NCBI GenBank assembly: GCA_963810275.1
Contig: CAWENF010000019.1
Location: 96,001 to 160,000 of the forward strand
Direction of reading: 5' to 3'
Origin: an uncultured archaeon
Lineage (GTDB): Archaea; Thermoproteota; Bathyarchaeia; Bathyarchaeales; Bathycorpusculaceae
Length of the DNA: 64,000 nt
The translations under genes and the position numbers were made by a program. Every line of letters begins with the position of its first letter. The first letter of the stretch is position 1. Positions 22,338 through 28,157 of this stretch are shown piece by piece. The notes under the pieces were generated by a model. It made no database searches. It was not told where the DNA came from and worked only from the letters and a program-made list of their open reading frames with translations.

Positions 22338-22350
22338 AATTGAGTTGTAG

Positions 22351-22425
22351 TGCTCCGGCCGGGATTCGGACCCGGGTCGCCGACTCGAAAGGCCGGCATA
22401 CTTGACCGGACTATACTACCGGAGC
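22351..22425 (-). tRNA. tRNA-Glu (anticodon UUC), intronless, CCA not encoded
   Basis: Reverse complement GCTCCGGTAGTATAGTCCGGTCAAGTATGCCGGCCTTTCGAGTCGGCGACCCGGGTCCGAATCCCGGCCGGAGCA folds as a cloverleaf with TTC in the anticodon loop. Confidence 0.96.
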
Positions 22426-24465: not shown

Positions 24466-25077
24466 TTGACTAAAAAAGGCGTATTCATAGTTATTGAGGG
24501 ATTGGACGGCAGTGGCAAGACCACCCAAGCCAGACTGCTGGCGGAGAAACTCTCTAAAACCTACCGAGTGCATCTTACATCGGAACCCAGTGGAGGCAAA
24601 ATCGGTACTTTCATTCGCGATGGACTCCTCTACGAGCAGGTGCGGCTTCCAGTCGAAGCCGAAGCGCTTCTATTTGCAGCCGATCGCATCGAGCACATGT
24701 ACAGCGAAATCAAACCCGCACTTGACGAGGGCAAACTGGTCATCTGTGACCGCTATGTGTACTCCACCCTCGCTTACCAAGGCAGCGCCGGCTTGAGTCT
24801 GGATTGGATTAAAACCACCAATGCACGAGCTCTGCAACCTGATTTCGCAATATTCATAGACGTGCCCCCCAAGAAGGTGCTGGAGCGGCTTCAACGCAAA
24901 AAATCCGTTATGGAAACACTTGAAACTCAACAGAAAGTGCGGGACGTCTACCTTAAGTTTGTGAAAAAGACCGAGCTTATTTCCGTAGACGGCGACAAAG
25001 AGACGTTTGTGGTTGCTGATGAGTTGTATGAGATGGTGGCTGCATTGCTTAAGCCTGTTGAGGCATACTTGCAGTAG
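24466..25077 (+). CDS. tmk: Thymidylate kinase
   Basis: FIVIEGLDGSGKTT, LLFAADR, CDRYVYSTLAYQG. Confidence 0.96.
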   Translation: MTKKGVFIVIEGLDGSGKTTQARLLAEKLSKTYRVHLTSEPSGGKIGTFIRDGLLYEQVRLPVEAEALLFAADRIEHMYSEIKPALDEGKLVICDRYVYSTLAYQGSAGLSLDWIKTTNARALQPDFAIFIDVPPKKVLERLQRKKSVMETLETQQKVRDVYLKFVKKTELISVDGDKETFVVADELYEMVAALLKPVEAYLQ

Positions 25078-25298
25078 CGCAAAGTAGCCATCTGCAATTG
25101 TTGGGCAAAAAATGTTTAACCAAACTTATGCAGTGAGGTTTATAGTTTTTCAGTTAAAAAATAGCGTTGCTCTCTGTTTCTAATCTTACATGTGTCGGAG
25201 TTTATATAAGTAGTCTCAGGGAGAGTCACGGAAGCCGATAACAATCTGGTCCCAAAGAACCCGCCAAGTTTATGTTCTAGCTTGATGCCTTTCTGTGC

Positions 25299-25374
25299 TG
25301 AAGCCAATGATGCATGAAGAGCCGTCTGAATTGTGAAGAATGCTAAATGGGGAATTATATTTACTGAGGCTTCA
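25299..25374 (+). ncRNA. Box C/D 2'-O-methylation guide sRNA
   Basis: 7-bp terminal stem TGAAGCC/GGCTTCA; box C ATGATG(C) 25307-25313; 12-nt spacer; D' CTGA 25326-25329; C' GTGAAGA 25333-25339; D CTGA 25364-25367; K-turn geometry. Confidence 0.8.
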
Positions 25375-25465
25375 AAGAAAAACTTAAAGAACTCCCAACC
25401 TATGCGGACTTTAGTTGTGTAATCTTTATTTGACTGAACAATAAACTGTATGACTGGAGACACAG

Positions 25466-26815
25466 ATGTCACTAGACAAGTTAAGCAATTCACTAACCGA
25501 CGCCATAAAGAAGCTGTTCAAGGCAGGTGTAGTGGACGAAAGGGCAGTGAAGGAATTGGTCCGCGACATCCAGCGGGCGCTGCTTCAATCCGACGTGAAC
25601 GTGCAACTTGTCTTGCAAATTAGCAAAAGCATCGAGGAACGAGCCCTAAAAGAAAAAGTACCACCCGGGGTTTCTAGACGCGAACATGTTATAAAAGTCG
25701 TTTACGAGGAACTCACGCGCTTCATCGGCGACAAACCAGTTACGCTAAAAGTTGAACCGGGTAAAAAGAAAACCATTATGCTTGTAGGTATTCAGGGCTC
25801 GGGTAAAACCACACACGCTGCTAAACTTTCAAAGTACTTCCAAAAACGCGGCATAAAAGTCGGCTTAATAGCCGCCGACACCTTCCGTCCAGGGGCATAT
25901 GCACAACTCCAGCAGTTGGCAACACGCATTAACGTTCCAGTTTTTGGTGATTCTAAAGCCAAAGACCCCGTTAAGGTGGCTAAGGAAGGCTTCAAACACT
26001 TTCAGGATCGCGATCTTATACTCGTCGATACAGCAGGTCGACATAAGGAAGAAAAAGACCTCATCAAAGAGATGAAGGCCATCGAGAAGGGTATTCACCC
26101 TGACGAAATTATCCTGGTCATAGACGGCACCATTGGGCAGCAGGCGTCGGCTCAGGCTAAAACTTTCCATGAAGCAACACCCATCGGGGCTATCATAGTC
26201 ACAAAACTCGACGGTTCAAGCCGTGGAGGCGGAGCACTATCCGCAGTCGCAGCAACAGGTGCACCCATCAAGTTCATAGGAACTGGCGAAAAAATCGAGG
26301 ATCTGGAAGCCTTCATACCCAGCCGATTCGTCGGTAGACTCCTTGGTATGGGCGACTTGGAAACTCTGTTGGAGAAAGTTCACGACGCAGAAATCAAGGT
26401 ACCACAGAAAAAGGCAAAAGAGATTCTTAGCGGTCACTTTACTTTAACCGACATGTATGAGCAGTTCGCTGCAGTCAAAAACATGGGTCCATTCAGCAAG
26501 GTCATGAAGATGCTGCCTGGTATGTCTGGGTCAAACATCCCCGATGACATGTTAAGTACCGCCGAAGGGCGACTTGACACATGGCAAGTCATCATCCAGT
26601 CAATGACGCCTGCTGAGAAAGAGAACCCCAAACTCCTCAACTCTTCTCGAGCACGGCGCATTGCTCGGGGCAGCGGTACCAGCGAAAAAGAAGTAAAAGA
26701 GCTTGTTAAGCAGTACTTCAACATGAAGAAGATGCTCAAGATGTTTAAGCGTAAAAAGAAGCTGCCTTTCGGGTTAGGTGGCAAAGGCGGCATGCCTATG
26801 GGTATGGGAATGTAG
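25466..26815 (+). CDS. srp54: Signal recognition particle protein SRP54
   Basis: ALLQSDVN, GIQGSGKTT, DTFRPGA, DTAGR, TKLDG, RLLGMGD, M-domain SRARRIARGSG. Confidence 0.98.
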   Translation: MSLDKLSNSLTDAIKKLFKAGVVDERAVKELVRDIQRALLQSDVNVQLVLQISKSIEERALKEKVPPGVSRREHVIKVVYEELTRFIGDKPVTLKVEPGKKKTIMLVGIQGSGKTTHAAKLSKYFQKRGIKVGLIAADTFRPGAYAQLQQLATRINVPVFGDSKAKDPVKVAKEGFKHFQDRDLILVDTAGRHKEEKDLIKEMKAIEKGIHPDEIILVIDGTIGQQASAQAKTFHEATPIGAIIVTKLDGSSRGGGALSAVAATGAPIKFIGTGEKIEDLEAFIPSRFVGRLLGMGDLETLLEKVHDAEIKVPQKKAKEILSGHFTLTDMYEQFAAVKNMGPFSKVMKMLPGMSGSNIPDDMLSTAEGRLDTWQVIIQSMTPAEKENPKLLNSSRARRIARGSGTSEKEVKELVKQYFNMKKMLKMFKRKKKLPFGLGGKGGMPMGMGM

Positions 26816-26828
26816 TGGGGTTAGTGCG

Positions 26829-28157
26829 ATGGATGTTTTAGAAAAAGCTTACGAGTTACTTAGTAGATACCCGCTTTGTGACCATTGTTTGGGTAGGCAG
26901 TTTGCGCTGTTGGGTTATGGAATGGAAAACAACTTTCGCGGCAACTCGTTGAAGGTTAGTTTAACGTTGCAAGCTAACAGTTTAACGTCTGAGGATGAGG
27001 CTACAAGTACCAACCGACTCACGGTGTTGGCGACAAACGGTTTTTGCTTGACGGCGCAGAAGACGCTTGAGCACCTTAAAAAAAATGTTGCAAACCCCAG
27101 CTCAGACTTGAAGTGCTATTTGTGTGAAGAGAAATTCAAGCTTGTGGAAGACTTAACCAAAAAAACAATTGACGCTTTGAGCGAATACGAATTTAAAACT
27201 TTCCTAGTCGGTATCGAACTCCCTATATCAGTTGAGGAGCGGGAGGACGAATTCAAAGCTACCCAAGGTATCGTGTACGGTGAGAGTATGCGTCACGAAT
27301 TCGGTAGACTCTTTGGAAAAGCCCTCGCCAAAACCACAGGCAAAGAAGCAGAATACCTTATTCCAGAAGTAGTCCCAGTCATAGATCCCTTTTCCGAATC
27401 CGTGAGGCTCCAAATCAACCCTACCTTCGTAGGCGGTAGATACCGCAAACTGGTCCGAGATGTCCCTCAGTCAGAGTGGTGGTGCCGCAGTTGCCACGGC
27501 AAAGGATGCCAAAAATGTGGTGGCACAGGCAAAATGTACCCTGAGTCGGTTGAGGCTTACACTTCTCGGGCGCTTTTGGAAGCAACCGGCGGGGCGGGAT
27601 CGTTTTTCCATGCTGCTGGTAGAGAAGACATTGATGCTCGAATGCTCGGGGCTGGTAGACCTTACATTATAGAGATTTCGCAGCCGAAGCGGCGTTCAGT
27701 GAACCTTAAAGAAATTGAAGCGGCGGTTAACGCTGGTGCTATAGGCAAAGTAGAAGCTTCAGGATTGCATTTCGCTACCAAGGATGATGTGCGGCACCTT
27801 AAGCATGGCGAGAACGCCCAGAAAGAGTATCGTTTACTGGCAGAGTTTCAAAATGACTTGACTGGGGAGGGACTGCGATTGTTGGAAGAAAAGTTGACTG
27901 GCGCACTAATTAAGCAGCAGACGCCTCTTCGTGTTGTGCATCGCCGGGCCAACATTGTTCGGGAAAGGTACATATATAAGCTTGAAGTTAAGAAGGTGAC
28001 GCTTAAGAAAGCCATCCTCTATATCAAATGTCAGGGTGGGCTTTACGTTAAAGAATTGGTGTCTGGAGATGAAGGACGTACAGTACCCAACGTGTCGGCT
28101 TTGCTTGGTAACCCAGCGAAGACGCTTAAGCTTGACGTTCTCAACATAATAATGTAA
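26829..28157 (+). CDS. pus10: tRNA pseudouridine(54/55) synthase Pus10
   Basis: LCDHCLGRQFA, GGRYRKLVR, AAGREDIDARMLG, QQTPLRV, GGLYVKELVSGD. Confidence 0.95.
   Translation: MDVLEKAYELLSRYPLCDHCLGRQFALLGYGMENNFRGNSLKVSLTLQANSLTSEDEATSTNRLTVLATNGFCLTAQKTLEHLKKNVANPSSDLKCYLCEEKFKLVEDLTKKTIDALSEYEFKTFLVGIELPISVEEREDEFKATQGIVYGESMRHEFGRLFGKALAKTTGKEAEYLIPEVVPVIDPFSESVRLQINPTFVGGRYRKLVRDVPQSEWWCRSCHGKGCQKCGGTGKMYPESVEAYTSRALLEATGGAGSFFHAAGREDIDARMLGAGRPYIIEISQPKRRSVNLKEIEAAVNAGAIGKVEASGLHFATKDDVRHLKHGENAQKEYRLLAEFQNDLTGEGLRLLEEKLTGALIKQQTPLRVVHRRANIVRERYIYKLEVKKVTLKKAILYIKCQGGLYVKELVSGDEGRTVPNVSALLGNPAKTLKLDVLNIIM

Follow-up and report, generated by a model that had tools for sequence, protein, structure and literature searches.

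Guides of box C/D small RNAs (sRNAs) to positions 2509 and 2510 (Escherichia coli numbering) of 23S ribosomal RNA (rRNA) are already on record in several archaea, and the guiding of C2510 is not new in itself. Helices 90–93 of 23S are presented as a methylation hotspot in PMC4644070. We describe a 76-nucleotide (nt) element predicted in a 64,000-nt stretch of DNA, called the window below (positions 96,001 to 160,000 of contig CAWENF010000019.1, assembly GCA_963810275.1), from a metagenome-assembled genome (MAG) of the archaeal class Bathyarchaeia. It is very probably a box C/D sRNA whose D′ guide is aimed at the C2510-equivalent site.

To place it among the described archaeal sRNAs with methylation targets in 23S helices 89–92 we relied on our own N+5 reading (i.e. 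the rRNA nucleotide opposite the fifth guide nucleotide upstream of box D or D′) of supplementary file 1 of Dennis et al. 2015 (PMC4644070). The D guide of Methanopyrus kandleri sR7 (MKAsR7) has its N+5 at C2510, as here. Those of Sulfolobus acidocaldarius sR7 (Sac-sR7), Nanoarchaeum equitans sR04 (NeqsR04), Ignicoccus hospitalis sR165 (IHOsR165), Thermoproteus tenax sR150 (TtesR150) and M. kandleri sR45 (MKAsR45) point to 2509, one nucleotide 5′ of our target. All share with the window sRNA the RNA class, the box order and the antisense to the 23S stretch GUCGGCUCUUC. TtesR150, with guides to ~2476–2485 and ~2506–2515, bridges the same two segments as here with the sides swapped, and Sac-sR7 also has its guide in the D′ position, with a D spacer of ~20 nt under our box assignment. 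Disparities nevertheless appear. Several of these sRNAs carry the guide on the D side, whereas it lies on the D′ side in the window, where in addition the D-side element has drifted away from box D, unlike in the others. They come from hyperthermophiles with tens to more than 100 sRNAs, whereas a strict pattern finds one locus in the present genome. No homology is established at the sequence level, the Rfam archaeal sR models scoring at most 23 bits.

Eukaryotic C/D small nucleolar RNAs reportedly make extra base pairs with pre-rRNA beside the methylation guide, as van Nues et al. are said to have found in 2011. The element AUGGGGA in the D spacer of the window sRNA can be likened to this: a second short complementarity, to a neighbouring rRNA segment, at an unfixed distance from box D, with a putative accessory role. 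In archaea, according to PMC7994747, guides are stated to be 10–12 nt long and a second complementarity is normally itself such a methylation guide, whereas here it is a candidate accessory contact.

Among eukaryotic guides the comparison is with U49/SNORD49. SNORD49A/B are listed as guides of human 28S Cm4456 (Cm4426) in PMC9941101, and counterparts are listed in Plasmodium and Arabidopsis, with none in yeast (PMC2656528). The antisense element precedes the D′ box in both SNORD49 (RF00277) and the window sRNA: the SNORD49 consensus reads GGAAGUGCCGU followed by CAGA, the window GUGAAGAGCCGU, more precisely AUGAAGAGCCGU, followed by CUGA. The two elements agree at 10 of 12 positions, with G at N+5 in both; position 6 from D′ is U in the SNORD49 consensus and A in the window guide. 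From the guide sequence and the rRNA numbering, human 28S C4456 is presumably the equivalent of E. coli C2510. A first-pass annotation of the window had ascribed to U49 a similar guide element for the equivalent C, and the SNORD49 consensus does carry it before its D′ box. The resemblance to U49/SNORD49 drawn there holds for this antisense element and not for the whole model, which scores 14.9 bits against a gathering threshold of 37 (E = 0.52 in a 501-nt search and 0.085 in an 83-nt search). Outside the antisense element only generic boxes align, and genomic context (an intron in animals for SNORD49), biogenesis and ribonucleoprotein (RNP) proteins differ. Because the target is invariant, the guides are bound to be alike, and their likeness does not by itself establish common descent.

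Architecture and conservation of the sRNA gene

On direct reading, the coordinates, the four boxes, the 7-base-pair (bp) terminal stem and the 12-nt D′ spacer given by the first-pass annotation are all correct (Table 1). The element has what is expected of an archaeal C/D sRNA, i.e. C and D boxes, a terminal stem, and D′/C′ boxes with a short loop. It is also expected that both spacers measure 10–12 nt: the D′ spacer (12 nt) conforms and the D spacer (24 nt) does not. The positions that we take for the sheared G–A pairs of the kink-turn (K-turn) and kink-loop (K-loop) are both intact.

When all four boxes and a terminal stem of 4 bp or more are required, this locus is the sole match in the 2.26-Mb genome, and the reversed genome has none. 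A relaxed scan (C...D with a stem of at least 6 bp) returns 112 matches versus 59 in the reversed genome; these are mostly noise and do not make an sRNA inventory. At gathering thresholds Rfam finds no C/D family in the 64-kb window, the only match being a tRNA-Glu (UUC) at 22350–22425 on the minus strand. In E-value mode over 25000–25500, 18 of the 20 sub-threshold matches belong to C/D-box families, with the strand and coordinates of the element, among them SNORD91 (28.7 bits for a threshold of 51), snoR38 (28.0 for 45), sR1 (23.1 for 45) and SNORD49, at the score given above. The Infernal search against Rfam, SNORD49 included, that the first-pass annotation had proposed therefore yields generic C/D models, all sub-threshold. 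Thermodynamic folding predicts only the terminal stem (z = −0.19 relative to shuffles), an uninformative outcome that was to be expected from RNAs of this class. The same genome holds genes for Nop5 (PF01798, C17:7930–8610, 245 bits), for fibrillarin beside it (PF01269, C17:8828–9508, 310 bits) and for L7Ae (PF01248, C19:193445–193717, 101 bits), all above cut-off.

We then scanned the 301 genomes of the order with a pattern for the whole sRNA, the reversed pattern serving as control. The sRNA is found in 153 genomes and the control in none. By family the counts are 126/147 (f1), 19/60 (f7), 3/3 (f2), 3/5 (f3) and 1/1 (f8), with 0 in six other families. This bears out the identification as a box C/D sRNA, against which a lack of box conservation in relatives would have counted; the boxes are conserved. 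In a sample of 401 genomes from the class, a 23-nt pattern with at most two mismatches matches 98 (reversed control 0; f1 90/103, f7 4/18, f2 1/1, f3 1/2). Although the mismatches could fall anywhere, the architecture-bearing matches keep GAAGAGCCGU, except for G375, which reads AUUAAGAGCCGU; the changes are confined to the three 5′-most guide nucleotides and to boxes C and D′. Covariance model (CM) R1 recovers members with this D′ guide from five more families within the class (G088; G111, G083; G064; G074, G113; G107). It also matches, at 24–46 bits, 17 of the 19 genomes of f40, a family from a different class of the phylum. The f40 copies are diverged and still have srp54 downstream, ~730–800 nt away, a gap with room for another gene. 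Their D box (loci L182–L197) reads AUGA or UUGA, not CUGA.

The neighbourhood is likewise kept. Among 80 public srp54 loci, the exact 14-mer formed by guide and D′ lies upstream of srp54 in 71, and a further four hold a copy detected by pattern or CM, i.e. 75 in total; among the remaining loci one has no upstream DNA and three have no copy within 2.5 kb upstream. The relatives' srp54 loci are 75–96% identical, and the distance from sRNA to srp54 runs from about 90 nt to more than 2 kb. In 30 same-genus loci the stem, C box, D′ guide, D′, C′, D and 3′ stem are invariant. By our reading of that alignment a block TTTAT(G/T)TTCTAG is near-invariant upstream, at fixed distance, in most of these loci, with variable flanks. 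The TATA-like TTTATG noted in the first pass ~28 nt upstream is present and is part of this block (25269–25274, i.e. 25–30 nt upstream of 25299); from archaeal promoter geometry, the block presumably acts as a promoter.

We compared 86 distinct family sequences. The extraction pattern fixed the paired core AAGAGCCGU, so its constancy there is not evidence. The D′ spacer is 12 nt in all 86, and the C box is ATGATGC in 84. The D′ box is CTGA in 78, CGGA in 6, AGGA in 1 and TTGA in 1, NNGA being kept throughout. The C′ box is GTGAAGA in 70, the others being NTGANGA variants. The three 5′-most guide nucleotides are ATG (74), AAG (4), GAG (3), GTG (3), TTG (1) or ATT (1).

The terminal stem was examined in an alignment of 34 members, fitted to the model, in which 91.8% of the cells are paired versus 70.8% in shuffles (reached by 0 of 500). 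Five of the seven pairs change on both sides, giving 53 double-change cells versus 20.6 in shuffles (again 0 of 500), and 1–5 when the partners are slid by 1–3 columns. The co-variation that the first-pass annotation had suggested looking for is absent within the order, where only G–U changes occur; it appeared once distant members were added.

Some individual copies stand apart. In G035, of the same genus, the copy is decayed (L166, G035:C166:14736–14806; C box ATAACG, guide GAAGAGTCAT) while its 23S target is intact. G471 has two identical copies (C1:79275–79317 and C1:633667–633709). The second match in G162 (C24:134406–134463, 27.7 bits) is weaker and has a changed guide, GAAGTTCCGT; it may be a paralogue.

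Judged by these comparisons, the archaeal sRNA family is deeply conserved, and the Bathyarchaeia MAG carries in the window a real gene for a box C/D sRNA, of an ordinary type and without an Rfam family.

The D′ guide and its probable 23S target

The D′ guide forms nine Watson–Crick bp with 23S GUCGGCUCUUCC. Positions 2–10 from D′ pair with CGGCTCTTC; opposite the G at the fifth position stands C2627 of the same-genus 23S, which reads GATGTCGGCTCTTCCTATCC in G003 and G014. We assign the paired segment to helix 90, on its 5′ side, beside the peptidyl-transferase centre. When the E. coli sequence in the alignment of Dennis et al. 2015 (supplementary file 2, PMC4644070) is numbered from A2451 and A2503, the target C comes out as C2510. 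The first-pass annotation had proposed both that 25316–25324 is complementary to the peptidyl-transferase region and that the D+5 rule points to the C2510 equivalent. The 9-nt complement is indeed present in the same-genus 23S, and the numbering agrees with that alignment.

With −16.4 kcal/mol this duplex is the best for the guide in that 23S, with no alternative within 3 kcal/mol. In 88 genomes of the order, every one of the 89 matched 23S segments reads GTCGGCTCTTCC, and the 28 same-genus 23S copies are identical in the target segment. In the window's own assembly no 23S is found with RF02540, by motif or by blastn with the relatives' 23S, and the target is therefore taken from congeners. 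This assembly has a complete 16S (G000 C21:175457–176942, outside the window, in a 295-kb contig); the lineage may have unlinked rRNA genes, or else the binning may have missed the 23S.

The other class provides a change on both partners. In f40 the 23S reads GTCGGCTTTTCC in 4 of the 4 genomes checked and the guide reads GGAAAAGCCGU, i.e. 23S CGGCUUUUC versus guide GAAAAGCCG. The change is compensatory, at guide position 7 and E. coli position 2512: G to A in the guide, C to U in the rRNA. From this pairing and its conservation, the guide most likely directs ribose methylation of the C2510-equivalent cytidine beside the catalytic centre.

The D spacer and competing explanations

The D side behaves differently. 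Across the 86 family sequences its spacer measures 10–31 nt, and TGGGG is present in 73 of them. The first-pass annotation had called the 24-nt spacer of the window unusually long, which stands, and had found no target for it, which does not: AUGGGGA is perfectly complementary to 23S 2473–2479 (UCCCCAU), 27 nt upstream of the D′ target, and co-varies with it. We presume this segment to be the apical part of helix 89. By cross-reading, the 35 genomes with both the motif and an assembled 23S all read UCCCCAU. In genus g36 the motif is AUAGGGA and the 23S reads UCCCUAU in the 3 of 3 genomes that have both (G319, G844, G845), and elsewhere in the G319 23S the sites that contain CCCC show no change. 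For genera g44 and g238 (motif AUAGGGG), which have no assembled 23S, a search gave matches only at the control level.

The position of the motif relative to box D is not fixed. In most lineages the two are 0, 1, 2, 3 or 4 nt apart, in the subclade of the window 8–16 nt, and in the window itself the motif ends 9 nt from box D. As the register drifts over 0–16 nt, the N+5 nucleotide is not conserved. The intervening A/U linker (8–16 nt) is variable, belongs to a subclade of the genus and is absent from most relatives; no rRNA target was found for the part beside box D, the best duplex reaching only −3.9 kcal/mol. A guide is expected to pair its N+5 nucleotide within a duplex of at least 8–9 bp: the D′ side does, and the D side does not here.

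Other lineages have other D sides. (A/U)UGGGG occurs in the D spacer of the window's genus and of several others. Part of f7 has CGCGAGCAAA as its D spacer; by our own pairing it makes 7 bp with UGCUCGC in the A loop and places N+5 at E. coli 2554. The 17-nt D spacer of g46 (G388, G427) and g42 (G342) makes 12 bp with the central-loop GCUGGGUUUAGA (E. coli ~2578–2589), with N+5 at 2581; by its pairing this is a strong second guide combined with the same D′ guide. Many families of the class, and f40 as well, conserve a D guide of the UAUGAGU type (e.g. L170, L174, L181, L183). For this older class-wide guide (..CCUAUGAGUG; GGAUUAUGAGUA in f40) there is no convincing complement in the partial rRNA sequences searched.

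We favour an independently transcribed box C/D sRNA with a D′ methylation guide and an accessory D side, a reading to which we give a probability of roughly 0.8. For the motif itself, the pairing and its register make an accessory contact, not a methylation guide, the somewhat more probable role in this organism. We infer that what is conserved in AUGGGGA is the contact itself and that only the D′ side guides methylation here.

Two other explanations dispense with a trans-acting guide. Short boxes, sub-threshold Rfam scores and a fold energy no better than shuffles would be in keeping with box-like motifs assembled by chance in intergenic DNA. This is effectively refuted by the occurrence in half of the order against no control match, by the stem co-variation, by the synteny and by the co-variation of guide and target. 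A cis-acting K-turn leader of srp54, e.g. an L7Ae-binding mRNA regulator, would account for a linkage kept in 75 of 80 loci and in another class, and L7Ae binding to mRNA K-turns has been proposed (PMC5539422). It is nevertheless very improbable, as it leaves the invariant 12-nt spacer, the rRNA complementarity and the co-variation with 23S without explanation; moreover the sRNA has its own conserved promoter-like block, and its distance to srp54 is as variable as reported above, f40 included.

The remaining two concern the D side. The sRNA could be a true dual methylation guide here too, AUGGGGA directing methylation within 2474–2478 while the A/U linker loops out. Many relatives, with spacers from 10 nt upward, indeed have the motif 0–3 nt from box D and their N+5 inside the duplex (A2478, C2477, C2476 or C2475 by lineage), and target shifts through guide indels are described for Pyrobaculum in PMC6009581. 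In the window, however, N+5 falls in the non-conserved linker, 9 nt away from the motif; across the family the drifting register conserves no single methylated nucleotide, and the duplex has only 7 bp. We regard a dual guide in this organism as improbable. Somewhat less so, though still unlikely, is a single-guide sRNA with an orphan D side, AUGGGGA being kept for some cause other than the 2473–2479 pairing, e.g. for RNP assembly, for another target RNA or as an inheritance of the UAUGAG type. The older D guide resembles the motif and has no target found, other 23S sites pair equally well by energy, and 28% of Pyrobaculum guides are orphans (PMC6009581). What argues against it is the joint change of motif and 23S in g36, with the other CCCC sites of G319 unchanged, and the proximity of the site to the D′ target: by simple arithmetic, chance would place a 7-mer within ~100 nt to either side in only about 1 case in 80.

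Several points weigh against the favoured reading. Every Rfam C/D model stays below its gathering threshold, and the C box (which ends in C) and the C′ box (GUGAAGA) are both off consensus. The own assembly is without a 23S, and the target comes from the 28 same-genus copies. Among 2000 shuffled guides 72, and among 2000 random 12-mers 102, reach by chance nine contiguous pairs covering N+5 in 16S plus 23S, so that complementarity alone is weak and the case rests on conservation and co-variation. The D′ guide also has an 8-bp alternative (7 Watson–Crick and 1 G–U, guide positions 4–11) at 493–504 of the own 16S. On the D side the duplex is short, with 6 bp in three of the 35 genomes (UUGGGG variants), and in G014 the 2473–2479 site ranks fourth by energy (−11.9 versus −13.4, −12.9 and −12.4 kcal/mol). 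The D-side co-variation, seen in three species of one genus, probably goes back to one evolutionary event, and in many members of the family a 23S with UCCCCAU is accompanied by D guides of quite another sequence. Finally, the decayed copy in G035 suggests that the gene is dispensable or can be lost.

Feature map, proposed mode of action and significance

The features of the sRNA are collected in Table 1. By Pfam the sRNA lies in the 388-nt gap between a thymidylate kinase gene (24466–25077) and srp54, which is followed by pus10 (26778–28157). From its first GTG the pus10 open reading frame (ORF) overlaps the end of srp54 by 38 nt (26778–26815), and the pair probably shares a transcript. A T-rich stretch and a TTTATTT motif at 25410–25440, ahead of the srp54 start, could be the sRNA terminator and the srp54 promoter. 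An ORF (117 aa) on the minus strand that overlaps the element, 25140–25493, was rejected as a gene: it has no Pfam family, and the indels of the spacer are not multiples of three.

Table 1. Coordinates of the sRNA, its parts and adjacent features in the window.
Feature	Position	Strand	Basis or remark
Whole box C/D sRNA gene, 76 nt	25299–25374	+	Sequence read directly; CM R1 82.4 bits (the window is a training sequence)
5′ strand of terminal stem, TGAAGCC	25299–25305	+	Pairs with 25368–25374, 7 bp
Single A between 5′ stem and C box	25306	+	Sequence
C box, AUGAUGC	25307–25313	+	RUGAUGA with final A to C
D′ spacer ATGAAGAGCCGT, 12 nt	25314–25325	+	Contains GAAGAGCCG at 25316–25324
D′ guide AUGAAGAGCCGU (predicted)	25314–25325	+	Positions 2–10 from D′ pair with 23S CGGCUCUUC; N+5 = E. 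coli C2510 equivalent
D′ box, CUGA	25326–25329	+	Sequence
Loop ATT, 3 nt, between D′ and C′	25330–25332	+	Sequence
C′ box, GUGAAGA	25333–25339	+	UGAUGA with fourth position U to A; K-loop partner of D′
D spacer, 24 nt, non-canonical length	25340–25363	+	Sequence
AUGGGGAA element inside D spacer, conserved	25347–25354	+	Candidate accessory antisense to 23S 2473–2479 (UCCCCAU)
A/U-rich linker UUAUAUUUA, motif to box D, subclade-specific	25355–25363	+	Variable in sequence and length
D box, CUGA	25364–25367	+	Invariant in alignment A1
3′ strand of terminal stem, GGCTTCA	25368–25374	+	Pairs with 25299–25305
Promoter-like block TTTATGTTCTAG, TATA-like	25269–25280	+	~25–30 nt upstream of the RNA 5′ end
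srp54, downstream neighbour, not part of the RNA	25466–26815	+	Pfam SRP54, SRP_SPB, SRP54_N

From the known biology of archaeal C/D RNPs we infer the following course. The terminal stem would bring boxes C and D together as a K-turn while D′ and C′ form a K-loop, and L7Ae, Nop5 and fibrillarin would assemble on the sRNA. The 12-nt D′ guide would then pair with 23S CGGCUCUUC, and fibrillarin would methylate the 2′-OH of the cytidine opposite the fifth guide nucleotide upstream of D′, i.e. the equivalent of E. coli C2510, at position 2627 in the same-genus 23S. The D side, with its 24-nt spacer and a non-conserved A/U linker at box D, would be degenerate as a methylation guide; AUGGGGA may pair with 23S 2473–2479 as a tether or chaperone, helping to draw in or retain the nascent 23S for methylation through the D′ guide. 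Archaeal dual guides that bridge nearby rRNA segments, with a chaperone role, are described in PMC7994747 and PMC4644070.

In the literature searched, no paper links a box sRNA with the Bathyarchaeia. The members assembled here make up a curated C/D sRNA family, backed by co-variation, that covers a large class of uncultured archaea and one or more other classes of the same phylum. In kind the gene nevertheless remains an ordinary one, whose second spacer is unusually long. Guide and target can here be traced jointly over a deep divergence, a rare case, with the srp54 neighbourhood kept equally far; few C/D sRNA families lend themselves to tracing with such confidence. The constant D′ guide beside a freely evolving D side, which depending on the genus pairs with the helix 89 loop, the A loop or the peptidyl-transferase central loop, makes a natural series for the gain, shift and loss of a second guide, and shows to what extent the 12-nt spacing rule is relaxed in mesophilic archaea.

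Presumably the same cytidine is modified via U49/SNORD49 in animals, plants and Plasmodium, which makes this position a test case for archaeal–eukaryotic guide descent. The first-pass annotation had suggested a possibly ancient guide common to archaea and eukaryotes. From the guide sequences, it is doubtful, though conceivable, that a single inherited lineage of C2510 guides predates the split between the Bathyarchaeia and the other class and has U49/SNORD49 as its counterpart by descent. If this were true, a C2510 methylation guide would already have been present in the archaeal ancestor of eukaryotes, and the D side would be an archaeal case of a eukaryote-like architecture, i.e. a long relaxed spacer with an accessory rRNA contact and no second guide.

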